Shown in pieces: positions 6,299 to 34,506 of a DNA stretch of 38,201 bases. The notes under the pieces were generated by a model. It made no database searches. It was not told the DNA's origin and worked only from the letters and a program-made list of their open reading frames with translations. Source of the DNA: a virus (Duplodnaviria; Caudoviricetes). The position numbers and the translations under genes are program-made. Location: IMG/VR virus record IMGVR_UViG_3300014208_000080, positions 1-38,201 of that record. One strand, written 5' to 3'. Numbering within the stretch: the first letter of the stretch is position 1; the number at the start of each line of letters is the position of its first letter.

Positions 6299-7131
6299 GG
6301 GATTTTCCGTTATAGGTTTTGCAATATGTTTTATTTGCGACGGAAAATCCCTTCGCTAGCATAAATGATTAAAAAACGAAACGCAAAAGTAATTCATCGT
6401 TCCGTTCTTACTTTTGCTAATTTTTCCCTTCCTTAAATTCCGGGAAAAATTCATCGCAAACTCAAAATGTAAATCGCAGTTTCGGAATTTTAATTCATCG
6501 TTATCGTTCGTTCTCAAAATTCCTTCATTCTTTGCTTCCTTTAATTCCGCAAAGAATTTCAAAGTCTTTCGATTCGCTCCGGTCAGTCGCTATCGCTCCC
6601 TCCCTGCGCTCCATCGGTTTACCTGCGGTGCTACCTGCTGCAGTAATCTCATAAATACACCGGCATAACCTTGGCTAAAACGGAATTCCCTCTTAAACCG
6701 CTAATCACGGTTTAACCCATTCCGTTTTATCGCCGGAATACAATTGGAAGAATTGAAAGGTTTTCTTTAATCTCAAAACATTGCGGGAGGAGGCAAAAAC
6801 TTTACGGTAGTACGGTGATAAATCAAAATTATTATTTCTGATTGATTACGAGGTACAAAGTAATTTTGATTTTTCACCTTTACATAATGCGGTATTATCT
6901 TGCAGACTTAATAGGGGTAGTTGAAGTGTCTGCAAGATAAATCGACATTATGCAAACTACCTATTTTTGCCCCTCCCTTAGCTGCAAATACAGATGAGGC
7001 TTGTACATGGTTTTTCTTTTGCTTATCGCCAAAATACCACGCCAAACCTCTTAAATGTTCCGCTTTTTCCCCTCATAAATCCTTTTTATATCTCTTGCGG
7101 AAAGCTGCACAGACATTTTTAACATTTGAAC
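6299..7131. other. structured non-coding region A (hairpin array; candidate ssDNA element or ncRNA)
   Basis: Perfect inverted repeats at 6299-6310/6340-6351, 6383-6392/6408-6417, 6435-6442/6483-6490, 6527-6535/6549-6557, 6676-6686/6719-6729 and 6895-6907/6928-6940; 17/18 match at 6814-6831/6861-6878. Confidence 0.75.
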
Positions 7132-7800
7132 AGAAATGATTTTGTCCCATTCAGTAAGTTTTTTATCAACTTAAAATTTCGAAGAGGGAGTATTTTACAA
7201 CTGAACAATTGAAAATTGATACTCCTCATTATTTAATAAAAACTATCCCCGATTGTTTATAAAAATTATATCCTTCTTTGTCAATTGCAAATAAATGCGT
7301 GGAATAAAATAAACTTGCTTTTTTAATTTGTTTACTTTATTTTTCATTTAAGCAAAGATAATTAATACTAAGACCGTATGAATTATGTGCGGGTTACTGA
7401 TAGACCACCCCAAACCCCAAAGAAAAGAATAGAAACACAAGTGCGACAATAAATACTTGAACAAAGGATCAATTCAATAAAATAGTTTTAGCTATTTAAC
7501 TAATGAAGGAAGCTTGGGTAATTTTCTAGACATAGTTTTATACAATCCGTGGGAAGCGGATTCCTCTCTTATCAGCGGTGGTGGAAGGGAAAGATGCAGC
7601 TAAATGTATTTCTCTCTTTACTTCCTCTCGTTTATGAAACTCCCGAAGTTTTTATACAAATATTCATTCAATCATTTTTCCTCTCGTTCATTCACCAAAA
7701 CTATCCGACAGGTTTTATATAACTTTGCTAAAGAGATTGTTGTTATCTCCCGCGCAAGGAGCGCCGGGAGCTTTCCCTAAATATTTTTAAGGTATTAAAC

Positions 7801-9576
7801 GTGAAAAAGATAGTGGTTTGTTGGTTGTTGGTGGTAGTTAATTTTTTTTCTTTTGCACAGCAAAGCAGACAAGAAAAGCTACAGCAGTTAAAAACCCGTG
7901 AGGATATTAAAGTTACAGAAGTAGAAAAAGACATACTTAAACTCGAATACCGGAACGGTATAACTCTCTATAAAAACATTGGCGATTATAAACCGCCAAT
8001 TACAAACGCTTTGCAAAAAACAATCCACTCACCAACTTACGACAGCACAATAATAGACCTCAATTCGATTGACACGATGCTTTATTATCAAAAATACAAA
8101 TACTGGCAGGAAGTACCTATTAGTAATCTTGGTTTTAACCATACGATGATAGGCGATGTAAATAAGAATGGGAGACCTGAGTTATATGGTGCAAGAAAAC
8201 TTTATAATACAGAATATGAACCTGTAACTGTTTATGAACTCAATAATACAGGCAAGTTTCAGTTTGTACATCAATATGATTCAGTTATGGATTGTTGGAA
8301 TATCTACGATTTTGACAAAGATGGAAAAGAGGAAGTTCACCTTGGAATGGGTGGAGTGTGGGGTGTAATCCCTTCACAACGCTTCTTCTCAAAACCAAAC
8401 GATAATTCTTTAGCCACACTACTTGATTTTGCGTTTATTCCTCAAGGTGAATATTATCAAATGAATGATGCCCAGTTAGGTGACTATGACAATGACGGAA
8501 AAACCGACTTACTTTGTGCTGCAGGGGCTGGAAGGGGAAGAATGCATATTTATGAGTACAATTCTGCAACAAAGACGTTTGATTCTGTTTACCAATTTCA
8601 AACAGTTGAGAATGGACCATTAGCAGTTTCCGGTTTTTCAGTAGCTGATTTTGATCTTGATGGTAAAACGGATATTGTTTTTGGTACCGGCTCTGGAGCT
8701 GTACATGTAATTGAGAACCAAGGAGATAACCAATACACACACAGTTGGCAAGGGATGGTAGAAACTTACGGAGCTTATACACATACTTGGACACACGACA
8801 TAGACAGAAATGGGAAACCCGAATTCTGGGTTCTAGGTAATGCATTTTATGATGATGGTGCCAAAACCAGAATAACACTGTTTGAAACTAACGGTGATAA
8901 CAGTTATGAAGCTGTAGGTAAGATTGATCTGATTGGTGCACTCGCCTGGGATGCCGGAACAATGCAAGCTATTGATATTGATAAAGACGGTATTGATGAA
9001 GTTGCTATTTGTATAGACGGCAATTTCTTGATTCTAAAATTCAATGGAAGTCAATCCCATCAGACATATGAGGTTTATTATATTAAACAAGATGGAAACC
9101 ATCCGCCTGATGAATTTGACAGGTACTATGGCGCAACAATGGCAGATTTACAAAATAACGGCAGCTACGAAGTTTTGCTGTCTATGATGCACGTAAAGTA
9201 TAATTTTAATCCAAATTTAAGTAAAGGCCAATTTGCAACAGTAATTTACAAACCCGATACTACCACAAGTACAATTGAATTAAGTGATCAGTTTCAATAC
9301 ACTTTCTGTCTGCAGCAGAATTATCCAAGTCCGTTTAATCCAAAAACAACCGTTAGTTTTACATTAAGCCGGTCAATTACTACTTCAATAAAAGTCTATA
9401 ATATTTTAGGGAAAGAAATAACAACATTAATCGAAGAAAATCTTTCTGCCGGAGAACACTCAGTTCAATGGAACGGAAAAGACGATAAAAGTAACCTCCT
9501 CTCGGGAGGCGTTTACTTTATTCAAATGATAGCAGGAAGCTATCAAAAAACAATTAAAACAGTTTTACTAAAATAA
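7801..9576 (+). CDS. FG-GAP/VCBS-repeat beta-propeller protein with T9SS type A sorting domain
   Basis: Signal peptide; seven DxD/NxD/NG repeats (e.g. GDYDNDGKTDL, ADFDLDGKTDI); C-terminal QNYPSPFNP...GVYFIQM...KTVLLK. Confidence 0.9.
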   Translation: MKKIVVCWLLVVVNFFSFAQQSRQEKLQQLKTREDIKVTEVEKDILKLEYRNGITLYKNIGDYKPPITNALQKTIHSPTYDSTIIDLNSIDTMLYYQKYKYWQEVPISNLGFNHTMIGDVNKNGRPELYGARKLYNTEYEPVTVYELNNTGKFQFVHQYDSVMDCWNIYDFDKDGKEEVHLGMGGVWGVIPSQRFFSKPNDNSLATLLDFAFIPQGEYYQMNDAQLGDYDNDGKTDLLCAAGAGRGRMHIYEYNSATKTFDSVYQFQTVENGPLAVSGFSVADFDLDGKTDIVFGTGSGAVHVIENQGDNQYTHSWQGMVETYGAYTHTWTHDIDRNGKPEFWVLGNAFYDDGAKTRITLFETNGDNSYEAVGKIDLIGALAWDAGTMQAIDIDKDGIDEVAICIDGNFLILKFNGSQSHQTYEVYYIKQDGNHPPDEFDRYYGATMADLQNNGSYEVLLSMMHVKYNFNPNLSKGQFATVIYKPDTTTSTIELSDQFQYTFCLQQNYPSPFNPKTTVSFTLSRSITTSIKVYNILGKEITTLIEENLSAGEHSVQWNGKDDKSNLLSGGVYFIQMIAGSYQKTIKTVLLK

Positions 9577-9612
9577 AATTTAACCCGTAAAAAACGGGGA
9601 AGGAATAAAAAA

Positions 9613-11280
9613 ATGAAAAAGATATTTTTATTAATGGCTTTGTTCTATTCTATCTCCTTTTGTCAAGGTTGGAATGCTACGGTTATAACCACTATCAATG
9701 AGGGGACTTTTTCACAGATGGATTTGTTCACTAACAAGGACGGGAATCATCTTGTTATTAAAAAATCAAACGGTACTATCATGTATTATAATCTTAATTC
9801 AGCCGGTACTGTTGACGCCAACAAAACCGCAACATTAGAAACAGGCGCGGACTTTCCGAACATCGTTGGTTCAAATAACAAGATTTACGCTCTCTATCAA
9901 GTTGGGTCTTTGATCAAAGGGAAATCTTCATCCAATGGCGGTGCCTCTTGGGCAGATATGCCGAATAATATCAGTATCGGTTCAAACACTTGCAATGGTG
10001 TTGATGCAGTTTATGAAACTAACCAAGGTGTCCACATAGTTTGGGCGACCATGGATAATGGTTCTAATTTTGAAACGTACTACCACAGATTATACGAAAG
10101 TAATTTAAGTTGGGTAGATTACGAAGTTGTATCTACTATTGGCGGTTTACCTACGGTAACATTTTCTTCTAATAGAGTGCACGTGGGTTATAACACTTGC
10201 GATAATACTAGAGCTGCAAAAAGCAGAGACAGATATAATGGTAGTTGGCAATCACCACAAGAGATATTAAGTAGTAACTCGTACATCGAAAAACTACATG
10301 CAGGTTCAACGAAGCTTTTCGATTTCTATTATAGATATGATGGGGTTTTTAAACTTTGTGCGAAAACAAGAGATTTAAGTGGCACAACTTGGTCATCTGA
10401 ACATGTTGTATATACTGGCGGGGATAACACGGAGATACTTTCTGTAGCAAATACTGCTGATGGCAAAATACATCTCGTTTATTGTGGTGGTGGTCAGAAT
10501 ACGGTTCATACTACTTATGATGGAAGTAATTGGGGAGATGAGAATATTATCTCCACATGGGGATACCCAAGAATTTCGTCTACTACAAACGATCTATTTG
10601 TTATGTGGCATCGTGAAATGCAGGATTTGAGATACCTTCAGTACGATGCGATTCCTTCTGTTCCACAAAACAATCAAATTTCATTTCCATTAAATCAAAG
10701 CCCAGTGTTAACATGGAATGCAAATCCGGAGCCTGATATTGCTGGTTATAGAGTTTTCAAAGAGTATAAGGATTCAGATGGGAATGTATTGTTTAGTGGA
10801 TCGGAATTAAAAAGTGCTACAACTTATTCCTATACTGACAATACATTTACGGCTAACTATAAAACCGGAACAGATGTTGCCGCATATTGGGTTAAAGCAG
10901 AAGACCTAAACAGCTATGAATCAGGCGAAACTTCTCATCTTACTGGTAATGGGGTAAGTTATTATCAGCAAAAAATTGTTAGACATGACAAAACCGAAAA
11001 AACAGTCATTGAGGAATACGGTCTTTCCCAGAATTATCCTAACCCCTTTAACCCGAGCACAGAAATAAATTATCAAATACCCTCAAAAGGATTTGTTACC
11101 TTAAAAGTTTACGATGTTCTTGGAAACGAAGTTGCAACTCTTGTAAACGAGTGGAAAGAACCCGGAAGTTACAACGCTCAGTTTACAACTAGTGAGAAAC
11201 AACTTGCAAGCGGAATGTATTTCTACACGTTAAATGCTGGTAAATTTACGGATACGAAGAAGTTCATTTTATTGAAATAG
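9613..11280 (+). CDS. secreted protein (BNR/propeller-like plus FN3-like) with T9SS type A sorting domain
   Basis: Signal peptide MKKIFLL; SSNGGASW; LTWNANPEPDIAGYRV; LSQNYPNPFNPST...SGMYFYTL...KKFILLK. Confidence 0.9.
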   Translation: MKKIFLLMALFYSISFCQGWNATVITTINEGTFSQMDLFTNKDGNHLVIKKSNGTIMYYNLNSAGTVDANKTATLETGADFPNIVGSNNKIYALYQVGSLIKGKSSSNGGASWADMPNNISIGSNTCNGVDAVYETNQGVHIVWATMDNGSNFETYYHRLYESNLSWVDYEVVSTIGGLPTVTFSSNRVHVGYNTCDNTRAAKSRDRYNGSWQSPQEILSSNSYIEKLHAGSTKLFDFYYRYDGVFKLCAKTRDLSGTTWSSEHVVYTGGDNTEILSVANTADGKIHLVYCGGGQNTVHTTYDGSNWGDENIISTWGYPRISSTTNDLFVMWHREMQDLRYLQYDAIPSVPQNNQISFPLNQSPVLTWNANPEPDIAGYRVFKEYKDSDGNVLFSGSELKSATTYSYTDNTFTANYKTGTDVAAYWVKAEDLNSYESGETSHLTGNGVSYYQQKIVRHDKTEKTVIEEYGLSQNYPNPFNPSTEINYQIPSKGFVTLKVYDVLGNEVATLVNEWKEPGSYNAQFTTSEKQLASGMYFYTLNAGKFTDTKKFILLK

Positions 11281-11383: not shown

Positions 11384-12538
11384 CTAATTCACCTTTACCG
11401 TCTCCGTTTCTTTTAGATCAAAATCACTTTCTTTTAGGTTATAGTTTTTCATATAATATTCTTTTGTGAACCTAACTCCTTGATCAGATAATACTTTATC
11501 CCGGTCAGCCAAATTTTTATCGATTTCTTTCTTGGAGAATAGCATGAACTTTGTCGTTTCGATGTTACCGTAGTTAAGAGTGTTATAATAACCGATCAAC
11601 TTTTTGAAAAACTTTTCTACTATTTTTTTATCCGGTTCGATGACGGTTTCGATCATCTCTTGATGGGTTTTTGATTGTGCATAAGAGCCAATGTTCTTGG
11701 CAATGGAAGTAAGTGTTTCCGTCAAGATCGCAAGACTGATTTCTTCTTTATGAAAATCAGTGAATTCTTTGAAGGCTGAAGAACTTCCTCCTTTGGTCTT
11801 AGACTCCAGAATATTGATCTTTGCCCCTTCCCTTTTTACAATCACACCAGTCTTTCTTAGTGCAACCAAATCGTTGAGAAATTCATCTTTCTTCCCTTCA
11901 TACATCGATTGAGGAAGTTCTCCCTCCAAAAATCCGGAACCGAATTTCTCAATGAAGTACGACCAATACTCTACCGCATTGGCTTTCATCTTAACATTCC
12001 AATAGCATTTCTTAATGAGCTTTTCTCCATAGGGATTCATATAGGAGGGATTATGCTGTGAGAGAATAAATTTATAATCGGGGAGATCAATTAGATCATC
12101 CATCTTATGTGGATTTTTTAATTTCAATACATTTTCATTATCGAAGGCAAACCAATCTTGCGGTTTTTCTTCAATTCTTTTTGGAAAATATTTTCCATCT
12201 TTGAATTCCCAAATTATTTCATGGACAGTATAGCCGTATAAAATAGCATCGAGAACCTGGTTCATCAGATCATTTAATTCTAATTGTTCAAAAAGGAGTT
12301 CCATCTCTTTGGTGTTTTTCATTTTCGCTGTGAACTCATGTTCCATCGCTTTAACGAATGCTTTTCTTTGAATAATGACTCCCGATAAGTGAGGATCATT
12401 TGTCAGTTTTTTATAATGCTCTATCGGGTTTCTGTAACCAATCAGCAACGTGTCGGGATCGGGAAGAATTTTACTTAACGAAGTATAGAAAGCATTGCTT
12501 TTTCTATTTGCCATTTCGTTTGTTAAAAGAGATTTCAT
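11384..12538 (-). CDS. portal protein, Mu gp29-like (DUF935)
   Basis: DPHLSGVIIQRK, LDAILYGYTVHEIIW, NPYGE, FIEKFG, ILTETLTS...GSYA...H. Confidence 0.9.
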   Translation of the reverse strand: MKSLLTNEMANRKSNAFYTSLSKILPDPDTLLIGYRNPIEHYKKLTNDPHLSGVIIQRKAFVKAMEHEFTAKMKNTKEMELLFEQLELNDLMNQVLDAILYGYTVHEIIWEFKDGKYFPKRIEEKPQDWFAFDNENVLKLKNPHKMDDLIDLPDYKFILSQHNPSYMNPYGEKLIKKCYWNVKMKANAVEYWSYFIEKFGSGFLEGELPQSMYEGKKDEFLNDLVALRKTGVIVKREGAKINILESKTKGGSSSAFKEFTDFHKEEISLAILTETLTSIAKNIGSYAQSKTHQEMIETVIEPDKKIVEKFFKKLIGYYNTLNYGNIETTKFMLFSKKEIDKNLADRDKVLSDQGVRFTKEYYMKNYNLKESDFDLKETETVKVN

Positions 12539-12554
12539 GGTGTACCTAAACTGA

Positions 12555-13832
12555 TTAATTGAAAAAGAGATTTTTATATTGGGCTGCTAGTGATGCCATC
12601 CCAAGATTTGCCGAGACGTGATCGATAGTTGTTTTCCTCCCCAAGAAGGGTTTTAGATATAGTAATGATTGGCTCATATCATCTACGCAGTCGTCGTGTT
12701 CAGCGTTTGGGAATTCTTCGCTCTGTTCATAAAAAATATCTAAGTAATCGAGATACTTGTAGACTTTAACTTTCCCTTGTTCCATGATAGGTGTAACTGC
12801 ATGGACACGACTTACTTTATCTGTATCGGGTTTTATTTTTACGATCGGGATGGTTGTTTCTCTTTCCATTTCTTGAATAAGAGATTGACCGGAAGCCTTA
12901 TCTTCAATAAGAACTTCCTCGACCCCCGGAATATTATGGTACAATTCAATGAACTTCTTTTTAAGTTCGGGGAATTCTACTTTTCCAACCCATTGGTGAA
13001 CAAGAAGTATTTCATCTTCCATTAATGCCCATGTTTGACATACGGAATAATCGTTCTCTTCTTTCGCTTTGAATGCAGTATCCCAGGCTTGAATAAGTTT
13101 AAGTATTTTTCGTGAACGAAAATCATAATCAAAAGTCGGGAGCCATGTTTTGCGGATAATCCCCTTTGAAAAAGTGTCAATGAACTTTCCATAGATCTCT
13201 TGATCTCTTAATAATGGAGAAACTTCTGAGACAGCTTCATCCACATCGGCTTTATTCAAGAGTGGATTATCGTAAGTCGAATAGTTAAATGACTTCCATC
13301 GAACACCGTCTGCCAACCCTCTTTGATAAAGTTCATAAAACAAATGTTTTTCTCCTTTGTGTTTTTTCCCTTTCGGTGTCCCCCCAATAATTACATTTGC
13401 ACCGTAATCCATCACCATAGGACGAATACTCTCTTCCCAGAGTCTTCTGTTCTTAAGAATGATTCCGGCTTCGTTGATGATGATCAATCGATATCCGAAT
13501 CCCTCAATGTTTTCGGGTGACTCTGCAGAGCGGAAATCAACCACTGAATTGTAAATCTTTAACTCCCCTTTTTGCCGATTGTATTTCCAAGCGGTTTTTG
13601 GTAGTGCTTTCAGTACGGGTAAAAAATATCGGTCAAAATATCTTTCGATATTTGAGTTCACAGTATCAACCCAAAGTATCGGACTTATCCCATCAATGCA
13701 ATTCTCGATCACATGAAGTGCCATTCCGCGCGTAAGTCCGAAACGCCGACCTTTCCCCACAACTTTGAATCGTGCGGGATCTTCAAACAGTTCAGCTTGT
13801 TTCGGCAAGTAATTTAATTCTAACTCACTCAT
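12555..13832 (-). CDS. terL: terminase large subunit
   Basis: KGRRFGLT, INEAG, GTPKG, STYDNP, WDTAF...DYS, IEDKASG, FPNAEHDDCVD. Confidence 0.92.
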   Translation of the reverse strand: MSELELNYLPKQAELFEDPARFKVVGKGRRFGLTRGMALHVIENCIDGISPILWVDTVNSNIERYFDRYFLPVLKALPKTAWKYNRQKGELKIYNSVVDFRSAESPENIEGFGYRLIIINEAGIILKNRRLWEESIRPMVMDYGANVIIGGTPKGKKHKGEKHLFYELYQRGLADGVRWKSFNYSTYDNPLLNKADVDEAVSEVSPLLRDQEIYGKFIDTFSKGIIRKTWLPTFDYDFRSRKILKLIQAWDTAFKAKEENDYSVCQTWALMEDEILLVHQWVGKVEFPELKKKFIELYHNIPGVEEVLIEDKASGQSLIQEMERETTIPIVKIKPDTDKVSRVHAVTPIMEQGKVKVYKYLDYLDIFYEQSEEFPNAEHDDCVDDMSQSLLYLKPFLGRKTTIDHVSANLGMASLAAQYKNLFFN

Positions 13833-14242
13833 GTAGATTCAATCTCTTTCGTTTCGTTCCGTATTTCTACTTCCCCTTTTGTATTCGTATTAATGGTTTG
13901 TTTCAATACGGTCAATGATTGATTTGGAGGAATTTGTAATGTGTCGGAGTGTCCGCAGAACTGTTTCCCCGCCCAAATAATAGCAGTGATGTTTCCTTTC
14001 AAGGCAAGTTCAATGAGTTTGGTGTTTATCTTTCTGACTAACTGACTTCTCCCCTTTTCGATCACATCAGCATATTTGTTTCGAATGGTTTTTTCGTCAC
14101 ATCCGGTAATAAAAGCTATCACCCGATTGGATAATCCTAATTGTCCCATCTTGACCAATTGTTTTTCATTCAGATATACCGGTTTTGTGGATTTTGACAC
14201 TTTATCATGCTCCGGTATCTCATTTACTTGCTCCGCACTCAT
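13829..14242 (-). CDS. terS: probable terminase small subunit
   Basis: HTH-like GLSNRVIAFITGCDEKTI; KGNITAIIWAGKQFCG; overlaps the terL start. Confidence 0.72.
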   Translation of the reverse strand: MSAEQVNEIPEHDKVSKSTKPVYLNEKQLVKMGQLGLSNRVIAFITGCDEKTIRNKYADVIEKGRSQLVRKINTKLIELALKGNITAIIWAGKQFCGHSDTLQIPPNQSLTVLKQTINTNTKGEVEIRNETKEIEST

Positions 14243-14351
14243 AAAAACCTTAATTATTTTTTACAAACTTAATAAATCTGCTTGTATATAGGCAGTTTTA
14301 TATTATATTTTGCCCAGATACTTAATAAATTTATTAATACTGAGTAAAAAT
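14243..14351. promoter_or_regulatory. divergent late-gene control region
   Basis: 109-bp AT-rich gap between the divergent terS and protease genes; promoter elements not firmly assigned. Confidence 0.5.
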
Positions 14352-15362
14352 ATGACCAAATGGTTTGAGATATTTAAAAGCGGAACTCACATCGATTCAG
14401 CCGGAGTGGAGCACACTTACACGGAAGCCGACCTTGACACCATTGCCTCTAATTATAATCCCCAACATTCGGAAGCTCCCCTGGTTATCGGACATCCGAA
14501 AACAAATGAACCTGCTTACGGATGGGTTGGTGAAGTAAAAAGGTTTGGTTCTTCTCTCTTCGCTAAAGCAAAAAGTATCGTCCCGGAATTTGAACAAGCT
14601 ATCAAGGATGGACTATTCAAAAAACGATCGATCGCAATAAACCCGGATAACACTTTGCGACATGTCGGCTTTTTAGGTGCTGTACCTCCTGCAGTTAAGG
14701 GAATGCAAGATTTAGCATTTGAAGCTAATACAGAAACGCAAACTTTTGAAATATCTGAGTTTGCCGATCAAGAAGATTTGCCTTTAACGGAAGAGCCGGT
14801 AATCCCCGAAGTAGTTTCTACACCGTTAAAAGTTAAGGAGGCGGAAATCATTCCGGAATCAGCCGGTGTTGTTCCTTCGACAGAAAATTTTACTTCACCC
14901 GAAGCTGCTGCAGTGATTACCCCGGATGAGGAAACAAATTTACGTTTGCAGCTTTCAAAGTCGTATGTAAAGCAGAGAATTTCGGAGTTTGAAATTTATC
15001 TGATGGAAAAACTGGCGTATGGAAATATCACCGTACCAATGAAAAATTCTTTGATGAAATTAGTTGAGATCGTCTCGACGGTAAATTTCAATGAATCTCA
15101 ATTATCGAATAGTTTTAACTTTTCTGACGGTTCTGTTGGTGATCCTCTTGAAGTTGTAAAGAGTTTGACCAACGAAATTTCAACTTTGAACTTGACGAAG
15201 GAATTTGCCGTGAAAAGTGAGAATAACTCCAAGGAAGATATCTCATTTTCCGATTTCAATGTCGATGAAGAAAGTTTAATTCTTCACAAAAAAATATTAG
15301 CCACAGCTAAAGAGAAAAATATCCTTTATGCTGAGGCAGCAAAGATTGTGTTTAATTCCTAA
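14352..15362 (+). CDS. Mu-like head maturation protease/scaffold
   Basis: WFEIFKSGTH, APLVIGHP, PAYGWV, LRHVGFLGAVPPAVKG; the ATG at 14352 is the preferred start. Confidence 0.88.
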   Translation: MTKWFEIFKSGTHIDSAGVEHTYTEADLDTIASNYNPQHSEAPLVIGHPKTNEPAYGWVGEVKRFGSSLFAKAKSIVPEFEQAIKDGLFKKRSIAINPDNTLRHVGFLGAVPPAVKGMQDLAFEANTETQTFEISEFADQEDLPLTEEPVIPEVVSTPLKVKEAEIIPESAGVVPSTENFTSPEAAAVITPDEETNLRLQLSKSYVKQRISEFEIYLMEKLAYGNITVPMKNSLMKLVEIVSTVNFNESQLSNSFNFSDGSVGDPLEVVKSLTNEISTLNLTKEFAVKSENNSKEDISFSDFNVDEESLILHKKILATAKEKNILYAEAAKIVFNS

Positions 15363-15387
15363 TTCGTAATTCCTAATTCGTAATTCA
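15353..15387. repeat. heptamer tandem repeat (TAATTCN) x5
   Basis: TAATTCC TAATTCG TAATTCC TAATTCG TAATTCA spanning the protease stop. Confidence 0.85.
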
Positions 15388-15402
15388 TATAACGAGGTAA
15401 AA

Positions 15403-16326: not shown

Positions 16327-16359
16327 CTGTTCGCTGACTAGTTAAGGAAAGAGATTTTT

Positions 16360-16629
16360 ATGGTACAAGAGAATTTAGATCCATTAAATTCACCCGACGA
16401 TTTACCCCGATCGTCGGGACAACCAACGAAGAAATACTACAAAGTAGTCGGGACTGATCTTTACAGAAATAAAAAAATAATTCGTGAAGGCTCGATTGTA
16501 GATTTCTTTGAACCGGCGTTTGCTCCTTTTTTAGTCCCGGTAAATGAAGCTGATGTCCCTCCTTCCGTTCAGATTGAACCGGAAACTATCAGCTCTAAAC
16601 CCGGTCGTGGAAGACAAAGAAAAAACTAA
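16360..16629 (+). CDS. small head-region protein
   Basis: 89 aa following the capsid gene, with a basic C-terminal tail. Confidence 0.6.
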   Translation: MVQENLDPLNSPDDLPRSSGQPTKKYYKVVGTDLYRNKKIIREGSIVDFFEPAFAPFLVPVNEADVPPSVQIEPETISSKPGRGRQRKN

Positions 16630-16682
16630 CGGGATATTTTTAATTACTATTTGTGACAAATCAATTTTATGGAGAATGTTAA

Positions 16683-17018: not shown

Positions 17019-17032
17019 TCTAAAGTTTAAGT

Positions 17033-23385: not shown

Positions 23386-23422
23386 TTTCGACAATCTCTA
23401 ACAATCATAAGGAACAAAGATC

Positions 23423-23791: not shown

Positions 23792-23804
23792 GAATCTTTA
23801 TCAA

Positions 23805-25574: not shown

Positions 25575-27043
25575 TGCAGCCTTTCAAACTCTATTTCAAT
25601 ATCACTACCATTCAATCACCGAAATATTATTTGCAGTTGGTTTTCGATTTTATCTACACTGATATTGTTTTTGTTAATCCCGAAAATCCGCAATTAGTTT
25701 GCCCTTTATACGATCCTAGTAATATTTATCAGATCAATGGAAGTGATTTTAATATCTTTCTTCCTGCTGAAATTGATAAGATTGATTTCAATTATAATTT
25801 TGATGATAAATTAGTGATCCCTGGAATTTGGAATCTCTCTATTTTTGATGATTATTCAATGCTGAATGAATGGCTTTTGGAACAAGATTTTTCTGTTTTT
25901 GCACTTTCTGTTCTACTGAAGATCGATTTGACAAAGCCGATTTCTGCTAATCTTTATCACATCAAAGATCATGAAAAATTTGTGTTCCCTTTGGAGGATA
26001 ATCATACAGCTTTCTTTTCCGGTTATGTTTATTCAAAGTCTCTTGGTTTTGATGATTTCACTAAACTTTTTTCTTTGTCGGTTCAACCGAACATTGAAAT
26101 ATTGAAGAAAGCTGATGTTAGAAGCCTTACTTCAGTTAGAGCAGATGCACTTGAAATTCCGGACGCTTTTCTTTCTTTTAAAGAAAATCTTTTTTATTTG
26201 TTACAAGTTGCTTTTCCGAATCTAAAGCTATCGGATATCTCAATAGAACATGAATTCGTTTTTTGCGCTCACAGTAATCCGGCTCATTCGCATACTTCAT
26301 CAGATCCAAATACAATTTTTGCAGCCGGTAGTATCGGGGAATATACTATACATGAACTTTTATTTAATGTCAGAGATATTGTACAACGTTTAGGATCAAT
26401 TACTTATTCCGGTAATGAACTAAGGTCAATGTCGGTTCATGATCTATTAAAGGTACTCTGTTTTTCTTTCTTCGCTACTTTAACGGTTACGCATAACAGA
26501 GTTATTTTCGCTTCTATCAATAAATCATTTCAAACGAACAAAACTTTTAACGGCAATAGATCAGTTTTTGGGTTCACAACAGAAACGAATTTTGAAAGGC
26601 TTGAATGGATCAGAGTAACTGAAGTTAGTGTTAATAGTCATCTCAGTCATTCGATCGGAACGCAGTCGGAACTTACAAATGGTTTTGACAAAAACATTGC
26701 CTTAGTTACTATCATGAATTTTGCGGTTAATCAAGGGGTTACGAGGTATATTTTATCTTCACCTTTTAAGGTCGAAGATGCACAAAACAATTTACTGCAT
26801 GTGATTTTTGCGAAAGAAAGCTCAACGGCAACAGATTACAAAACTTTTAGAAAGTTATTAGCTACACTTTGGTATAATTATTTGAATAAATACTCTTCCG
26901 GGAAAATTTATAAGTTCCAAATTGATTCTGTTGATTTTGATTTTACTCAATCTATTGGCTACCATGACCGGCTTTATTCGCCGGTAGGAATTCATTATGA
27001 TATCGTGGATGATTCGACAACGATCGATGCGGTGAGAAATTAG
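25574..27043 (+). CDS. putative tail tip/hub protein
   Basis: 489 aa, beta-rich, TAATG-coupled to the TMP; function from position only. Confidence 0.45.
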   Translation: MQPFKLYFNITTIQSPKYYLQLVFDFIYTDIVFVNPENPQLVCPLYDPSNIYQINGSDFNIFLPAEIDKIDFNYNFDDKLVIPGIWNLSIFDDYSMLNEWLLEQDFSVFALSVLLKIDLTKPISANLYHIKDHEKFVFPLEDNHTAFFSGYVYSKSLGFDDFTKLFSLSVQPNIEILKKADVRSLTSVRADALEIPDAFLSFKENLFYLLQVAFPNLKLSDISIEHEFVFCAHSNPAHSHTSSDPNTIFAAGSIGEYTIHELLFNVRDIVQRLGSITYSGNELRSMSVHDLLKVLCFSFFATLTVTHNRVIFASINKSFQTNKTFNGNRSVFGFTTETNFERLEWIRVTEVSVNSHLSHSIGTQSELTNGFDKNIALVTIMNFAVNQGVTRYILSSPFKVEDAQNNLLHVIFAKESSTATDYKTFRKLLATLWYNYLNKYSSGKIYKFQIDSVDFDFTQSIGYHDRLYSPVGIHYDIVDDSTTIDAVRN

Positions 27044-27119: not shown

Positions 27120-30100
27120 CTATTTTAGCAATAACATCTTCTTTGTGGAGGTAAAGTCATTCGCGCGTAACCGGTAAACATACATACCGCTTGCAAGTGA
27201 GGAAGCATCAAATTGGACAGTGTATTTGCCCATTTCTTTCTGTTCGTTTACAAGTGTTTTTACTTCTTTACCAAGCATATCATATATTTTCAATGTTACA
27301 CTTCCGCTTTTTGGCAACTGGTAAGTAATGATTGTTGCCGGGTTAAACGGATTAGGATAGTTTTGGAATAGATCATAATCTTTCACTACAAGTTTGTTGG
27401 AAAGGTCTAAACTAACAGCCTTACTTTTGCCAAGTACTTTTGCATCCGATTTTATTTCTGAAGCATAGTAAACCGGGTTTAAGCTGTTTGTTATTTTTAC
27501 CTTAAAATAAACTTCTTTACCGGTTAATCCTGTAAGATCGATATTATAACTTTCTGAATTGAGATTAAGTGATGAATTACCATCAAACTTCACATTATTT
27601 AGGGTGTAGAGAACCGCATCATTTGTGGCATCAATTAACTCAACGTTGAAAGAAATAAATTTATCTTTTTGTAATAAGCTTAATGCTTTAACGGTATCTG
27701 TCGCGCCATACTCAATTGAGTAACCAAAGTTATCGGCATCACCCAAGTTTACCATATCGGATGTCATTAGGTAGTCTAGATCATTCTGAGAAAGATTTGT
27801 TGCGTTAAGGTTAATACCTTTAAATGCAACGTTCTGTCCGTTAAAACTAATATCCCCAATACGGAAGAAGAACTCAGTTTTTTCCTGCCTTGCAACTACT
27901 TGAACACCTGAACACATTGCTAATGGATTTTCTTTATTAAGATTATAAAGATCAGCAGATTGAGCGAATGAATAAGGTGTGGTAGTGTTGCTGAACGAAA
28001 CAATCTTCATGTCTTGTAGTGTGGAAGTGCTAAATATTTGTAAATCTTTACCATAAACAGGCGCTGTATGCACTGAACCCCATTTTAAGAACTTGTCGCT
28101 ATATGGGCTTGAGCTACCTTCACTCCAAGCAAGAATACTGCTGGAACCATAACAGGCAACGGAAGGATAATTGACTGTATTGCCATATTGCCCAAAATAT
28201 GAACTCCAGGAAGAAGTTCTGGTTCTTGAAATAACTTTTCTGGTGCTTGAAGGATAATAAGGCATTGCCGCCCATGCAACATTTACAACGTTAGAAGTTG
28301 ATAGACTGATAGATGGAGAATAATTATAAGAATACCCACTACCCGAAGAAACATCTTCAACGCCTGTAGTGGAAGAAAGAGTATTGTTTGTTCCAACATC
28401 TATCTTCGAGTAATCAATGTGTGAATAATTACCTGTAGGCTGCTGCCAGGCGATATGAAATACATTTCTTGCCGGATAGGTTACACTCTTAGTAACATCT
28501 ATTGCAGGGCTTAGATTTGCTCCGTTTACTTCACCACCCAAAGGATCAACCATATCACCTAAATTACCGGCGGAATACCAATAGTGATAATCGTAACTGA
28601 TATGTCCGAATTTATAATAGAGCCCTTCAGTTTTTGAACCTGATAGAGTTGTTCTTTTCCAAACAATCATTACTTCGTTATTTGCACCAAGAGCAACAAC
28701 CGGGGTTAAGTTCTTTGTTGCATACGCTTCATCCGGTTCGGACTCTAATAAATAACTGCCGTCTGTTCCGCAGCCGCATGGATGGAAGAGCATTACTTTG
28801 GAACCTGTTCCATCTTTTTCCTGGTAAACAATTACTATTTCGGTGCCGTTAATAGAAATAGCCGGATGTTTGGATTCATAAGTTGAAAGCGGTTTACTAT
28901 TATTCATCAACTGCCAGGTTGTACCATTATTTGTGCTTCTTTCATAGAATACGTATCCCATACTTTCGTAAACAAGGTGCAAATAACCATCCGAGGTTTT
29001 TACAACTTTATTCTGATTATTATTCATAAATGACGTGGAAGTACCCGAAAGATGTACACCCTTATAGTTTGCAGTTACAAGAGCGTTTGCATTGTTAAAT
29101 ATTACCGCTTTTTGATCATATCCACTTGGATTATTTCCAACTTGTTGTAATGTAAAGTTTGTTCCGCTCCAGTTTTGAAAATAACCGGTGACTCCATTTA
29201 ATGTTTGAGTTAATGGCGCTTGAACTGAATAATAACTTCCAGAGTTTACTGACTGACTTAATAATACACCCATGTGAGAAGTGCTAGTCCCAATGTTGTT
29301 TGTTGAATAACTTACCGGCCTATGCCAATCTGCCATTCCTTTATTTCTTTGTCCGAACGCATCGGTTGTATCAATCATCCAAGGATCAAGCAAGTTAAGT
29401 GTTCCACCCGGAGTTACACCTTCTAAAGATGCTTGCAGCGTTGCATTGTTTGCTGTTTTGAATTGTGAAGTTATAATGTTAGGCTGCCCTACTGCTGTCT
29501 TGAATGTATCAGGGTTAATCACTCTTGAGCTTAAACTATTCCAGAGTTGGAATTTTTGAGTTGTCCCTGTCTTAAAGTATTGCTGTCCCCTCATCCTTTC
29601 AGGAGTGTTGTTAAAAGAAGGAAATACATAAGGGACAGCAGCAGAATCGAACCTATTAAAAGTCCAATGCCCAACTGTTCCAAAGGGAGTGCTTGATTCA
29701 TCCAGTTGAGTGACCGATACATTAACCATGTTAGGACTAACAATTCTTCCACCGGGTTCAACAACCAAACCGGATGCGGGATTTACTGTTGCCGAATTAG
29801 TTAAGATCAAAGTACCATAAATTAATATTTTCGAATTAGCGTCACCAAGATTTACAGTTCCTTCAACCAAAGTTGTATAATTCGCATCAATAGTAACCGT
29901 TTTACCTGCACTTATTGCTGCTGTACCAGTTATCCGGTTAAGATTCCATGTAGTATTGGCTGTTACCTGCGGATTGTTAAGAGTAGTCATTCCTTTAACT
30001 ATTGCATCATAAGCGCTTATTTTTCCATAACCGGAAGTACTATTCCATGTTCCTCCTGTCCCCGACGAAATACTTTTAGCGCTTGAAGTAATTGCCGATA

Positions 30101-31754
30101 TAAACTGGGATGAAGTATGTGTTGGATACCTTGAATAATAAAGAGCTGCAACTGCCGCCACATGAGGAGCGGCTGCAGAAGTACCGAAGAAAAGACTATC
30201 TCCTCCAAAGTGACCGTCTTTACCAACTTTGGTTACAACACCATCAGTAGCGGTTATAACAGGTGTATTCCTATTCTGCTCGGTTCCGAGATTACCAAAT
30301 GTGAACATAAGTGAAGGTCCATGGGAACTAAATGATTCAACAGTTGGGGTTTGGTCTAACGCGCTATAAGCTGCTACGCTTATTACGTTTGTTGCAGCAG
30401 AGTGACCATAGATATGCCCGGTCGAACTGCCGTTTGTAAGAGTAAACGATCTCGAACCATCAGGGTTAATATCTTCCGGTAATACCAGTATTTTAATGTT
30501 TTTAAAAGATTTCCCCAAATAGTAACCCTTATAATCAACCATAATATGAAACGTTGCATTATTCAAATAGTTCGACCAAGTAAGGCCAATCCATTCTTGT
30601 GGATATGATCCCTGACCGGCCTGATAGACTGTTGAAGAATCTATAAGATTCCAATTGTTGTCATATAAATATAAATTATAATCTTCACTCGCATTCCCCC
30701 ATAGTTCGTCCCATTGCAATGCAATAGTGATTGATTTATAATTTGAAAGAGTGAATGTTAGGGCAGAATCAGTCGATGTAAAAAGAACCCAATTCTTTCT
30801 TCCACCGGTTTTTACGCTTGGCTGTCCTGTGTACATTTTTTCAGCATCATTTCCGGCAGCAGAAACATAGGTTCCGCCATTTGATTGAAAACTATAAATT
30901 GCCTGGCTTATGTCTCCATCTTCAAACCAGGGTTGGCTAGTTATCCATCCTATATCATCTACAATTACTTTACAGTTCGCAGAAGTAGATAAAACATTAA
31001 TTGTATTTGCCATGTCAAGTGCAGTTGTGGAAATAGTATCGTTATTTGAATTGATATATTTACCTACACCGCCAAAAGTCAAACCGGCGCCTGGAGCGAG
31101 GTCGTGAATGATCTCCATCATTGCCGTTCCTTCAGAACCGATAAAATTATTTGAGTTGTTTACCCATCCAATTGGGGGTAAATCTCCGCTTTGCTGCGAA
31201 TTAGCATAATACTGCATACCATTAGATATAACGCCAACTTTAACCGGAGTGCCATTAATATCAGCACCGTTACTATAGAACAATGCCCGGGTAGAATCAG
31301 CAAGTAATTGACGATCTCCGGCGGATATAGCACTACCGGTTTTTGTAAAAGACTGTCCGGGACCATCAATAAACGTAACGCCGTCTAATGTTACTAAGTC
31401 GGTAAGTTTATCCAGTGGAACCCATGCGTTAAGGTTCATTGTTCCTCTGTATTGAATCTCACCACCCCAGGTAACTATGTTATTAGCTACAACATCCATA
31501 TTGCGAATTGCAGTAATATTCAAGAACATTCTCCCGTTACTATCAACGGGTAAAAACTTTGAACTGTACTTGTTTTTGTATTCAGCGCTGCTTAATTTTC
31601 TAAAAGCTGCATCACTTTTAATATGCCGGAATTTTTTTGTAAGCATGCTGCTCATTTTCCTTTCTGCCGTACTGTCTATATTTTGTTGAGCAGTTAGGAG
31701 CGTTGCATCGATAATAATGCAAAGCAACCATAAAACCAATAATCCATTTTTCAT
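27120..31754 (-). CDS. S8/S53-like subtilase with T9SS type A sorting domain
   Basis: Signal peptide; VKVGVISNG, SEGTAMMEIIHDLAPGA, VSAAGND, FFGTSAAAPHVA; C-terminal LFQNYPNPFNP...SGMYVYRL...KKMLLLK. Confidence 0.93.
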   Translation of the reverse strand: MKNGLLVLWLLCIIIDATLLTAQQNIDSTAERKMSSMLTKKFRHIKSDAAFRKLSSAEYKNKYSSKFLPVDSNGRMFLNITAIRNMDVVANNIVTWGGEIQYRGTMNLNAWVPLDKLTDLVTLDGVTFIDGPGQSFTKTGSAISAGDRQLLADSTRALFYSNGADINGTPVKVGVISNGMQYYANSQQSGDLPPIGWVNNSNNFIGSEGTAMMEIIHDLAPGAGLTFGGVGKYINSNNDTISTTALDMANTINVLSTSANCKVIVDDIGWITSQPWFEDGDISQAIYSFQSNGGTYVSAAGNDAEKMYTGQPSVKTGGRKNWVLFTSTDSALTFTLSNYKSITIALQWDELWGNASEDYNLYLYDNNWNLIDSSTVYQAGQGSYPQEWIGLTWSNYLNNATFHIMVDYKGYYLGKSFKNIKILVLPEDINPDGSRSFTLTNGSSTGHIYGHSAATNVISVAAYSALDQTPTVESFSSHGPSLMFTFGNLGTEQNRNTPVITATDGVVTKVGKDGHFGGDSLFFGTSAAAPHVAAVAALYYSRYPTHTSSQFISAITSSAKSISSGTGGTWNSTSGYGKISAYDAIVKGMTTLNNPQVTANTTWNLNRITGTAAISAGKTVTIDANYTTLVEGTVNLGDANSKILIYGTLILTNSATVNPASGLVVEPGGRIVSPNMVNVSVTQLDESSTPFGTVGHWTFNRFDSAAVPYVFPSFNNTPERMRGQQYFKTGTTQKFQLWNSLSSRVINPDTFKTAVGQPNIITSQFKTANNATLQASLEGVTPGGTLNLLDPWMIDTTDAFGQRNKGMADWHRPVSYSTNNIGTSTSHMGVLLSQSVNSGSYYSVQAPLTQTLNGVTGYFQNWSGTNFTLQQVGNNPSGYDQKAVIFNNANALVTANYKGVHLSGTSTSFMNNNQNKVVKTSDGYLHLVYESMGYVFYERSTNNGTTWQLMNNSKPLSTYESKHPAISINGTEIVIVYQEKDGTGSKVMLFHPCGCGTDGSYLLESEPDEAYATKNLTPVVALGANNEVMIVWKRTTLSGSKTEGLYYKFGHISYDYHYWYSAGNLGDMVDPLGGEVNGANLSPAIDVTKSVTYPARNVFHIAWQQPTGNYSHIDYSKIDVGTNNTLSSTTGVEDVSSGSGYSYNYSPSISLSTSNVVNVAWAAMPYYPSSTRKVISRTRTSSWSSYFGQYGNTVNYPSVACYGSSSILAWSEGSSSPYSDKFLKWGSVHTAPVYGKDLQIFSTSTLQDMKIVSFSNTTTPYSFAQSADLYNLNKENPLAMCSGVQVVARQEKTEFFFRIGDISFNGQNVAFKGINLNATNLSQNDLDYLMTSDMVNLGDADNFGYSIEYGATDTVKALSLLQKDKFISFNVELIDATNDAVLYTLNNVKFDGNSSLNLNSESYNIDLTGLTGKEVYFKVKITNSLNPVYYASEIKSDAKVLGKSKAVSLDLSNKLVVKDYDLFQNYPNPFNPATIITYQLPKSGSVTLKIYDMLGKEVKTLVNEQKEMGKYTVQFDASSLASGMYVYRLRANDFTSTKKMLLLK

Positions 31755-31816
31755 TTTACACCTTTCGTGTTTTTTTTGAAATAATATTTATTAAATGCTA
31801 ATTTGTAGGTGCAAAT

Positions 31817-31918
31817 AAAAAGGCGCGTGGTTAACGGACGTAAACGAAACCACGCATAAGGTGACCAGCCTTGACCTATATATTTGCATTTTATAGGCGG
31901 GATGCTACAACATCCCGC
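31817..31918 (-). promoter_or_regulatory. intergenic multi-hairpin leader with terminator-like last stem
   Basis: Inverted repeats at 31897-31904/31911-31918, 31875-31880/31892-31897 and 31825-31832/31848-31855; the last is followed on the minus strand by GCCTTTTT. Confidence 0.55.
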
Positions 31919-31927
31919 TTAATTATT

Positions 31928-32005
31928 TTGTCATTCTTTTCTCCATAAATCTTATTTTCTTACACCGACTACTGCAATAGCCCGGTCGCCTCCGAGCGTT
32001 CCAAC
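31928..32005. repeat. 78-bp direct repeat, copy 1
   Basis: 74/78 identical to 33040-33117. Confidence 0.95.
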
Positions 32006-33046
32006 GGCTACCACAAGGTTATCTTTTATACTTACCGAACAAAAAACACAGTTCGGAATATTTAACTGCTGTGTAAAATTATACCACGTGCTGCCGTTGT
32101 AATGCAGTAAGGTTCCGAATGCCCCCACTGCAACAATATCATTCCATGCGTTCCCGCGAATTGCGTTGATATAACCATAATTCTTTGACGGTGCTGCTCG
32201 AATGATTTGCCAAATGCTATCCTGTAACGACTTCTTGTAATATATTTCTGCGCCAACGATATAATAACCTTTGTTGTCAAACCATAGTCCTCTTATACTC
32301 CATGAAAGACCATTTGTGTTGATTTTTGTTGCAGTATTACCGGTGATAGAAAGTAAATTTTCTGTTCCCCCATAATACACGGTTGAACTGATGCTAAGTA
32401 TTGTTGTTTGTCCGGAAGTATTTTTGTATCCCCAAATGTCTTGGATATCTTCATTTACTCCGCTTTCTAGCTTTTGCCAATTTATCCCATTGAAGTGAGT
32501 AACCATACCCTTCCATCCTATCCCATACAAATTATTCGAACTAGTCCCGAAGAGTCTGTTTACAGATTGTCCGTTCTCCTCCCCTCCTACTAAAGAAATC
32601 CGATCATAAGAAGCGCTTACTTTCCCTGATGCACCATCCCAGCCATATATACCCCCATCAGTCAACCAAATATCAGAAGAAGAAATACTTAAAATTCCCC
32701 TAATGCTTGGTATTATATTATTATTTGTATCATAAATTCTGTTAAGTTTCCATTTCTTACTGTCCCATTCTACTATACCGTATGGTTGGGGCTCAAACTG
32801 TCCTGTTGAATCTTTAACTTCAATATCCCCAACAGCATAAACAAGCAATGGATTTGTACTAATAATTGCTACATCGTTTAATCCGCTTCCGTTGCCATCT
32901 CCTAAAGTATCAATGGTAAAAACCCAGTTGTGGCTTGTAGTATCTTGTCCTTCCGGTGGCATGGGTGGTATAACCGGGTTCTTTTTACAATTAAAGCCCA
33001 ACATCGTGATAACAACTAATGATGTTATTAAAATATATCTTGTCAT
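31952..33046 (-). CDS. lipoprotein, beta-propeller-like
   Basis: Lipoprotein signal ending GFN-C, then KKNP, Pro linker, DTTSHNWVFTIDTL, and repeated HF/YNGxxW blades. Start at the ATG at 33046 (GGAG RBS) or 33058. Confidence 0.85.
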   Translation of the reverse strand: MTRYILITSLVVITMLGFNCKKNPVIPPMPPEGQDTTSHNWVFTIDTLGDGNGSGLNDVAIISTNPLLVYAVGDIEVKDSTGQFEPQPYGIVEWDSKKWKLNRIYDTNNNIIPSIRGILSISSSDIWLTDGGIYGWDGASGKVSASYDRISLVGGEENGQSVNRLFGTSSNNLYGIGWKGMVTHFNGINWQKLESGVNEDIQDIWGYKNTSGQTTILSISSTVYYGGTENLLSITGNTATKINTNGLSWSIRGLWFDNKGYYIVGAEIYYKKSLQDSIWQIIRAAPSKNYGYINAIRGNAWNDIVAVGAFGTLLHYNGSTWYNFTQQLNIPNCVFCSVSIKDNLVVAVGTLGGDRAIAVVGVRK

Positions 33047-33117
33047 TCTTTTCTCCATAAATTTTATTTTCTTACACCAACTACTGCAATTGCCCGGTCA
33101 CCTCCGAGCGTTCCAAC
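33040..33117. repeat. 78-bp direct repeat, copy 2
   Basis: 74/78 identical to 31928-32005. Confidence 0.95.
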
Positions 33118-33256: not shown

Positions 33257-33506
33257 AAAGTTTTTCCGGTAAAAGTTAAAAGAGAAGGAGGGGAAAAATG
33301 AATGAGCGAAGAAGAAAAAAGGGAAATAAATACATCAGTTCTCTTTATTTTTTCTATTTTTTTGTTCGCTACTATAAAAGCATAGTGTTTTATTTTTAGC
33401 ATTAACTAACTCCAAGGACGAAACAATAAATGGATATTAAAATATCTTTTTCAAACAATAATTTTTTTTTCAGCTAAAGTATAAGCAAATAATGCGAACA
33501 AAAACA

Positions 33507-33588
33507 GTAGGGTAAACCCTAATAATGTGTAGGGTAAACCCTAATTCGTAGTAGGGAAAACCCTACAAATGAGTAGGGAAATCCCTAC
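33507..33588. promoter_or_regulatory. four palindromic TAGGG-N4-CCCTA sites at a 22-bp period
   Basis: Units start at 33507, 33529, 33551 and 33573: GTAGGGTAAACCCTAA twice, GTAGGGAAAACCCTAC, GTAGGGAAATCCCTAC. Confidence 0.85.
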
Positions 33589-33770
33589 TGAAAAGTAACC
33601 CCTAACGGTTTTTGTTTCATTTTCGCACTTTTTCAGTTTTACGCCCTTTTTTGTCTATTCTTCCCGTCTTTTCCCCGACTCAGTTATTATTCAGATTTTG
33701 CTATACAAATTAGTAGTTCAACTATTAATAAATTATCATTTTTTGCATCGCGCTTTTGTTCTCCTACTTC

Positions 33771-34506
33771 GCCCGAGGCGGATCGCATTACGAAAATCAA
33801 TTCCACTTCATTTCATTGAAATGTGATAAAATAACAGTTAGTCAAAATACACTCCGGTTTGAGACTTTTTTCTCAAAGGAATTTCAACTGCTGCTTATCT
33901 ACTTACTTCGCGCTATTCGGAATAGAGTTGAAGGGGTTTTCTTTTGGGTCAATTTAACTCAATTCCTTTTAAGTCTTTTAATACAGTAGTACCTCCATCA
34001 CCATGATTGGTTTTCCGAAGAGGGTTTATAATCACATCACTTTCGATCAAGTCTGACGCCTTCAAATACTACGAACTCTTTTTGTGGGAGAAAAGCAAAT
34101 TTTCCATCAGCTGCACGTTTGTAAACACAATAAAAAACACCAACCGCTAATCACTTCTCCGGCATTTTTTATCGCATTTACTTCACGATGTAAAATCAAG
34201 ACAGTCCCTACAAAAAGAGTTCTATATTTATTGGCTGACTTGAAAAAATCGAAAGTGAAATCACAAAAACACTCAATCGCTTCGAAAAAATTCATTTGTT
34301 CATGTTTACGGTACATTGAACGCAACAAGACATAAAGTTTTAAGATATAAAAATCTTCACTTTGACCTGAAAACCTCCCTCATTTTTCTCTATTCCTAAA
34401 TTTACAATAGCAAAAGCGAAACAGCGATAAGCGAACGGCAACGCAGTTGAAATTTTATTCCTCTTTGAAAAATGTAATCCTCAAAACCGTGAATCTCTTT
34501 TCGGGC
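33771..34506. other. structured non-coding region B, ~735-nt imperfect fold-back hairpin
   Basis: More than 12 nested collinear inverted repeats, e.g. 33880-33891/34443-34454, 33919-33927/34388-34396, 34037-34047/34248-34258, 34073-34089/34205-34222; apex at about 34138-34164. Confidence 0.88.

Follow-up and report, generated by a model that had tools for sequence, protein, structure and literature searches.

The 38,201-nucleotide (nt) stretch analyzed here in its entirety (positions 1 to 38,201 of the IMG/VR record IMGVR_UViG_3300014208_000080; hereinafter, the window) belongs to the genome of a temperate phage and contains two conserved non-coding modules, region A (a structured region at 6660-7120) and region B (a rod with its core at 33855-34489), for both of which folding is predicted on the minus strand alone. 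With moderate confidence, we interpret A and B as initiation signals operating on single-stranded DNA (ssDNA), similar to the known single-strand origins (sso) and to Frpo, that are combined with a folded Xer site and are common to prophages and virion-less islands. The short motif displayed in their loops likely tells a host polymerase or primase where to initiate or terminate synthesis on ssDNA.

Region A is predicted to form, on the minus strand, an apex hairpin (6676..6729) with the loop GATTA closed by T.G/G-C, a three-way junction enclosing two hairpins (6785..6978) and a further hairpin (6997..7059); the 300-nt segment holding the junction is the most stable of 253 such segments in the window. 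Across six homologues, 97.3% of the 336 cells in the six helices of region A are paired, and two-sided changes were detected at 12 of the 56 pairs, a number reached in none of 500 shuffles; slid controls are 43-47% paired, in a comparison that favors the structure, which was drawn from the window's own fold. Two-sided changes affect seven pairs of helices 5 and 6, the apex stems. The wobble pairs fall on the minus strand, which folds better than the plus strand in all six copies of region A. In G914 C17 and C18, the entire apex stem is replaced and the loop is retained. The third hairpin carries a variant of the loop motif, GCGATAAGC, at 7021-7029, so that the two regions have more in common than had been noticed from the sequence alone. 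At the corresponding position, L001, a prophage whose capsid protein is 97% identical, has GCGATTAGC. After dnaB, a cluster of short minus-strand hairpins (6285..6640), in which the motif recurs as a tetraloop variant at 6589, is retained in the G914 C16 prophage and replaced in L001. A search of 401 genomes of the class with region A gave only four matches, of 26-33 nt; distant searches produced no match to A or B among 72,556 plasmids and none to A, the module that was run against phages, among the latter. The window has no Rfam match at the gathering score. A degenerate region A pattern matched genome contigs 33 times, in unrelated taxa, and these matches were taken as chance.

Region B is predicted to fold on the minus strand into an imperfect rod of about 635 nt (33855..34489), with the terminal loop at 34142-34160, and is the best-scoring long inverted self-alignment in the window (156, the next one scoring 111). 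The mismatches between its arms include 17 A.C oppositions on the plus strand, equivalent to G.T on the minus strand, versus three G.T on the plus strand. G.T on minus exceeds G.T on plus in all eight B rods (10-17 vs 2-6), which are related rather than independent, and the minus strand folds better in each of the eight B copies. The right arm is conserved at 83-97% and the left arm at 77-81%. In all close homologues of B that were fetched, genes for RadC and ArdC follow the rod; viral loci collected through more distant ArdC proteins (L012-L024, 27-35% identity) carry neither A nor B.

The core GAT(T/A)AG is present at the apex in all six copies of region A, including that in the window, and the homologues had not been chosen by the motif. 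At the apex of B, GCTAATC (GATTAGC on the minus strand) is retained in all four homologues found by BLAST, and GATTAGC also occupies the apex of a diverged B copy in L001, which was found through the capsid protein and not the motif. Six metagenomic loci (L059-L064) were left out of these counts because the scan that found them required the B apex motif; L060 duplicates L061, L064 nearly duplicates L063 in B, and L065, the window's own record, was dropped. Read on the minus strand, the motif is a five-base loop atop larger stems, of which the window has three examples and L001 three that are intact, and up to four loop copies are found per element. The extended motif GYGATWAG lies in hairpin loops in three of three cases in each of these two elements, compared with a background of 3-13%. 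In three host chromosomes, GYGATTAGC occurs 14, 10 and 7 times, and the reversed control 14, 10 and 13 times; these background-level counts rule out a genome-wide motif of the Chi or uptake type. The exact apex hairpin was searched in viral contigs, with zero matches.

The direct repeat AACCGCTAATCAC, a 13-mer, has exactly two copies in the window, at 6696-6708 and 34142-34154, both on the plus strand. According to the predicted folds, five nucleotides of the left copy lie inside the stem 6693-6700/6708-6715 and seven make up the loop 6701-6707, above an outer stem at 6676-6686/6719-6729, and the right copy is the start of the terminal loop of the B rod, in agreement with the sequence-only reading, which had placed the repeat at both hairpin apices in the same orientation. 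That reading had also conceded that a repeat of this length could arise by chance, and so it could: the window contains 43 maximal direct repeats of at least 13 nt, compared with 27-34 in Markov simulations, and repeats with the GC content of the 13-mer are present in 98% of the simulations, so that only the placement at the apices counts. The crude chance that any of the 43 repeat pairs would hit both 20-nt apex zones, which were chosen post hoc, is 2e-5. The comparison set for the repeat consists of six elements that carry both A and B, including the window. The longest word common to A and B is 13 nt in the window only and 9-12 nt in the other five elements; the closest full-length relative with the window's layout has different apex words. 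Thus, the expected conservation of the motif at the apices of relatives was found for the core GAT(T/A)AG(C) but not for the 13-nt identity. The 13-nt identity is best explained as a functional core of 7 nt to which chance has added matching neighbors. The suggested minus-strand resemblance to the CS-6 motif of single-strand origins was not exact at either apex: CS-6, as given in an excerpt of PMC10378824, is TAGCGA/T, the window apices read TAGCGG, and those of homologues TAGCAG, TAGCAA, TAGAGG and AAGCGT. Of the proposal that structured regions present a matched pair of ssDNA sites, the presentation stands, given the predicted loops, conserved at both apices in relatives, and the strand-specific folds; the matched pair does not, given the exact match in one element of six, the multiple loop copies and the arrangement in L001, where A and B lie side by side and a further B is present.

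Region A also contains two dif-like sites. Site 1 (6877..6905, minus strand) consists of an XerC-like arm, a 7-nt center and an XerD-like arm, with 9 of 11 positions in both arms matching the dif of genomes G914 and G898; site 2 (6930..6958, plus strand) is inverted relative to site 1 and matches the same dif at 10 of 11 positions in the XerD-like arm and 9 of 11 in the XerC-like arm. Separated by a loop of 24 nt, the two are predicted to fold into one site with a mismatched center. The chance expectation of such sites is 0.08 per 38 kb, and none of 200 simulations gave two. The XerD arms tabulated for Chlorobi in the excerpt of Kono et al. (PMC3025954) agree with the outer arms. In the subtype represented in the window, helices 3 and 4 are 100% paired, with two-sided change at four pairs in six homologues, and the XerC-side center bases are ATC and TAC, unpaired, versus TGT in the host. 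Of 23 capsid loci that are more distant, 14 have similar sites on the far side of the portal gene, and in 11 of those 14 loci the hairpin is 99.6% paired, all three two-sided changes falling in the center. A pattern that left the XerC-side center bases unconstrained detected dif pairs in 58 of the 301 sampled genomes of one order (likely Ignavibacteria), with up to five copies per genome; the reversed control gave 0. The three XerC-side center bases agree between the halves in 25 of the 25 loci fetched and, in 19 of these, are TGT, the start of the host dif center. On this sequence evidence, the dif pair resembles a folded Xer site, but is not an attP of the CTX type by the full definition. 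An integron attC is not favored, given that the base beside the outer arm varies and covaries, and that the arms match dif. The relatives of the window encode tyrosine integrases, and the element in G107 is located about 580 kb from dif. The dif pair may serve multimer resolution or cargo exchange, or may be a relic.

Several observations pertain to the surroundings of such sites. The host chromosomal dif sites (L149-L151, L205-L207) have a constant center and XerD arm and a variable XerC arm, and the XerC-like arms in region A are similar to the dif arm of genomes in which this region is present. Among the neighbors of dif pairs (L067-L072, L074-L079, L082; L168-L192) are Fic, SNase, toxin-antitoxin and receptor genes, and also portal genes. 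Head-only modules of about 8-9 kb lie among restriction and defense genes (L067, L075, L076, L082 and L138:11300-19900 in G107) and encompass genes for portal, terminase, protease, capsid, cement and one or two signal-peptide-like proteins, with no tail, replication or integrase gene seen; each has a conserved non-coding region and a dif-pair hairpin. A second class consists of single dif-like sites with 6-7-nt centers that are located beside small cassette-like genes and are reminiscent of pdif (L138:7501, L141:7300 and 10434, L081:16617, L153). In G395, a tyrosine recombinase (L143:8207-9172; Pfam Phage_integrase, SAM_4), which we take to resemble integron integrases, adjoins a related head module with cargo of the type IX secretion system (T9SS) on both sides.

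A BLAST search of the 301 genomes detected B in two genomes, at three places, and a fourth copy was found within a fetched region. In L001, A is followed, 0.6 kb further on, by the diverged B copy and small open reading frames (ORFs), with no cargo, and the 56.7-kb contig contains an additional full B with RadC and ArdC beyond the virion genes. The G914 C16 element is a complete prophage that shares the synteny of the window but carries different T9SS cargo on both sides. Three B-carrying elements are virion-less islands, with no virion genes between A and B: the G914 C17 island consists of integrase, repressor, initiator and DnaB genes followed by A, 26 kb of cargo and B, with a tRNA repeat of 43 bp at its end, and two PrimPol-integrase islands have a single gene between A and B and adjoin tRNA-Thr. 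Attachment (att) repeats were looked for in the G914 C16 prophage and the two PrimPol islands, and none were found. Across elements, the distance between the apices of A and B ranges from 0.6 to 30 kb, and their order and orientation are constant. Hence A and B flank a variable slot, which the virion module occupies as just one of several alternatives, and this much of the exchangeable module proposed in the sequence-only reading stands; the 13-mers as its borders do not. Homology continues 300-420 nt past the apex of A and begins 400-600 nt before the apex of B, such that synteny breaks 300-600 nt inside the apices rather than at the 13-mers. A single cargo junction was found, which joins the truncated left arm of B near 33945 to the end of a tail gene and is identical in L061 (reversed 2900-3900) and L064:1-760; it lies about 200 nt before the B apex, and the cargo unit is duplicated in tandem. 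Given that the apex core is kept and synteny breaks elsewhere, the sites are loop signals, not borders. When the 13-mers were considered as paired recombination sites (ends of the IS200/IS605 kind, direct att repeats), the element borders and junctions were not located at them. No half-A/half-B fusion was detected among the elements fetched. In one sequencing run, possibly that of the source sample, each apex is crossed by an unbroken Logan contig (5905-6966 and 32800-34389), and among the matches listed, no loose contig end occurs at a 13-mer, although contigs drop rare variants and may thus have missed such junctions.

Under the interpretation of A and B as single-strand initiation signals, the element would pass through a stage with a single-stranded minus strand. 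Because this strand is the template of the RadC/ArdC cassette behind B, the rod would provide, as Frpo or an sso does, both early expression of the anti-restriction gene (ArdC) and a primer for the second strand. Region A would prime likewise and would present the folded XerC/XerD site formed by the two inverted dif mimics. As the source of ssDNA, we favor strand-asymmetric replication by the element's own replication module, which A directly follows in the DnaB-type elements, over conjugative transfer. That DNA rather than RNA would be the folded molecule is suggested by the dif mimics and by L006, a distant relative in whose non-coding region GC-GNA-GC mini-hairpins number five on the minus strand and none on the plus strand. 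The pertinent part of PMC8744291 describes an ssDNA-binding domain in ArdC and characterizes Frpo as a stem-loop of 328 bp from which both priming and transcription on ssDNA proceed.

Several points weigh against this interpretation. Neither an HUH nor a relaxase protein was found among the window's 40 ORFs scanned, and four relaxase families were found in none of five host genomes (MOB_H and MOB_Q were not searched), so that no source of the proposed ssDNA stage was found. Terminase-portal phages package double-stranded DNA (dsDNA). ComEC, encoded in all five hosts but also in 10 of 14 controls, is uninformative in this respect. Inspection and motif matching of both arms of B revealed nothing that convincingly resembles a promoter box, nor a match in B to a -7 box of the Bacteroidota type, although the host's own consensus may differ. 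Neither region of the window contains GC-GNA-GC mini-hairpins (0 and 0); only two of the three GCGATTAG copies of L006 are in predicted loops, and one segment of L006 folds better on the plus strand. Both L006 and the G347 element contain motif-bearing structured regions, but neither has an alignable A or B. In three copies of B and one of A, the loop is no longer closed by the mini-stem. Finally, the G.T bias is equally compatible with G.U in RNA. As a separate observation on the genome to which L006 and L118 belong (G001, 23.3 kb), it has direct terminal repeats and encodes a related head module, whereas neither tail nor integrase genes were seen; small early genes with a repeated 110-nt upstream unit follow a structured region of 2.1 kb.

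The G.T bias also fits an alternative that we consider unlikely, namely, that A and B template structured minus-strand RNAs (B, the leader of the leftward cargo operon; A, an antisense RNA) in which the motif is a protein-bound RNA loop. In its favor, RNA energies favor the minus strand in 9 of 10 regions, and the minus strand encodes the right cargo, at a distance of about 800 nt from B; however, the dif mimics in A are DNA sites, the window has no Rfam match, and RadC and ArdC, rather than the cargo, remain linked to B. It appears rather improbable that, without any long single-stranded stage, the stems extrude as cruciforms from supercoiled dsDNA and that Xer or other proteins act there. 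This would suit a phage with a dsDNA packaging module and the lack of a detected ssDNA source (four relaxase families, five hosts), and the dif-pair arms form 25 nearly perfect pairs that enclose a 20-nt loop; but a cruciform needs pairing on both strands, yet the wobble pairs sit on one, and a 635-nt rod with about 50 mismatches would be unlikely to extrude.

We regard as improbable the mobilization of the prophage and the islands by conjugation, with A being an origin of transfer (oriT) or nick region for a relaxase supplied in trans, and B together with RadC/ArdC, a conjugative leading region. The genes for ArdC and for DUF4942 proteins resembling orphan methyltransferases, along with small ORFs, behind a structured ssDNA region are indeed similar to leading regions, the virion-less islands retain both modules, and the CTAA-containing loop, in our assumption, recalls Rep_trans nick sites; against this stand the several loop copies per element, the absence of similarity to the 72,556 plasmids and the absence of the four relaxase families from the five hosts searched. 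A role of A and B as packaging or helper-hijack signals common to a phage and its satellites is compatible with the presence of both modules in full prophages and in PrimPol-integrase islands without virion genes, and with the related dif-pair hairpin adjoining the portal gene in head-only modules; we deem it very improbable, given that a portal gene lies within 1.5 kb at only 4 of the 25 dif-pair loci and that pac or cos sites are not expected to fold in a single-strand-specific manner. Least probable of all is the original model of the two 13-mers as a matched recombination or nicking pair that excises or replicates the 27.4-kb block: their direct orientation, the location of both at apices and the variable slot speak for it, but the 13-nt identity is limited to one element of six, the closest syntenic relative differs at the apices, synteny breaks elsewhere, and no A/B fusions were found among the fetched elements.

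Returning to the interpretation of A and B as single-strand initiation signals, we further propose, tentatively, that Ignavibacteria carry a widespread family of one-strand cis modules, comprising CTXphi-like folded Xer sites and sso/Frpo-like rods with the GATTAG loop, that are common to tailed dsDNA prophages, head-only capsid modules and PrimPol islands. If so, these elements have an unrecognized, strand-specific ssDNA stage and rely on the action of the host XerCD on folded DNA when cargo is moved or exchanged. Because both kinds of signals are conserved in prophages of the terminase-portal type and in the virion-less relatives of these, an ssDNA step is indicated that has not been ascribed to such elements. 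The interest of these findings rests mostly on the strand-specific modules and the dif-pair family, not on the 13-nt identity; the dif-pair hairpin is common and short, and could be tested with purified XerCD. Among the top-ranked matches in the open-access literature, no title or abstract opening describes these elements.

The rest of the window shows the layout of a temperate phage. Genes for RecT, RusA, a DnaQ-like exonuclease, the initiator and DnaB (385..6284, plus strand) precede region A; the integrase and repressor of relatives sit further left, beyond the window's edge. In L011:4501-5574, compared with 385-1539 of the window, an unrelated 357-aa protein replaces RecT, and the C-terminal end is common to both. 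The left cargo (7801..11280, plus strand) encodes two proteins with T9SS C-terminal domains and is represented by other genes in G914 C16 and absent from L001. The virion module (11384..27043) includes genes for a Mu-type portal, terminase, protease, major capsid, lysis and tail proteins. The right cargo (27120..33058, minus strand) encodes an S8 peptidase with a T9SS tail (27120-31754) and a 368-aa protein without a Pfam match, and is replaced by other cargo in L059-L064 and G914 C16. The T9SS cargo thus points inward from both sides of the head and tail genes, as had been noticed from the sequence. Beyond B lies an early-type cassette (34579..37364, plus strand) of two ORFs of 83 aa, RadC (35072-35530), ArdC (35622-36479) and DUF7659 (36945-37364); the nearest homologue of ArdC (95%) is attributed by name to an Ignavibacteria bacterium, and one of the 83-aa ORFs had a top score of 0.86 against the ESM Atlas, which is uninformative. 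A 101-nt direct repeat (88%) at 31924-32024 and 33036-33136 surrounds the 368-aa gene, with the end of a paralogue preceding this gene and the start of a paralogue following it, as if excised from a tandem array. Between the cargo and B, tandem palindromic repeats of the GTAGGG...CCCTA type (33507-33590), possibly regulator sites, have short matches in all four sequencing runs compared. A conserved non-coding unit at 37575-37749, with a promoter-like box, a hairpin and a terminator, might encode a small RNA of about 75 nt; it is also present in L003, L059-L064 and the G914 elements and has no Rfam match.

Parts of A and B resemble known kinds of signals; they depart from CS-6 and from the definition of integrative mobile elements exploiting Xer (IMEX), and the Frpo boxes were not found. 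The comparisons below refer to excerpts of the cited papers. Single-strand promoters and origins have been described for conjugative and rolling-circle elements (PMC11541004, PMC8744291, PMC4595007, PMC10378824). Similarly to Frpo/ssi (PMC11541004, PMC8744291), B is a long imperfect stem-loop directly before ArdC, on the templating strand; in contrast, it is about twice the size of the F plasmid Frpo (328 bp), no -35/-10 boxes were found in it, neither an oriT nor a relaxase (MOB_H and MOB_Q aside) was found, no plasmid similarity was detected, and it resides in a prophage and integrase islands. With the ssoA-type origins (PMC10378824, PMC4595007), A and B have in common an orientation-specific imperfect palindrome and a short conserved terminal-loop word, TAGCG being common to CS-6 and the window apices; unlike in those origins, the core GAT(T/A)AG(C) is shifted relative to CS-6, the sixth base differs, several copies are present, and no rolling-circle Rep or relaxase is found among the window's 40 ORFs.

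Folded single-strand Xer sites have been described for filamentous phages, and, as in attP(+) of CTXphi (PMC4246890, PMC3089051, PMC5357621), two inverted dif-like sites in region A would pair within one strand with a partly mismatched center, their arms match the dif of the host lineage, and the intra-strand pairing covaries. The differences are that the loop of region A is 24 nt rather than about 90 nt, that the XerC-side center is unpaired in the window subtype, although paired in the wider dif-pair family, and that, in contrast to CTXphi and IMEX, the carriers are capsid-terminase prophages and islands with their own integrase, whose ends, where found, are at tRNA genes, not dif. The Xer-using prophages treated in the excerpt of PMC12715192 are non-tailed. 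With these dif-type double-jelly-roll prophages and with pdif modules, the elements described here have in common the reuse of host Xer sites by mobile DNA beside variable cargo; there, however, single dsDNA dif-like sites are located at the borders, whereas the pair in region A is internal and appears built to fold.

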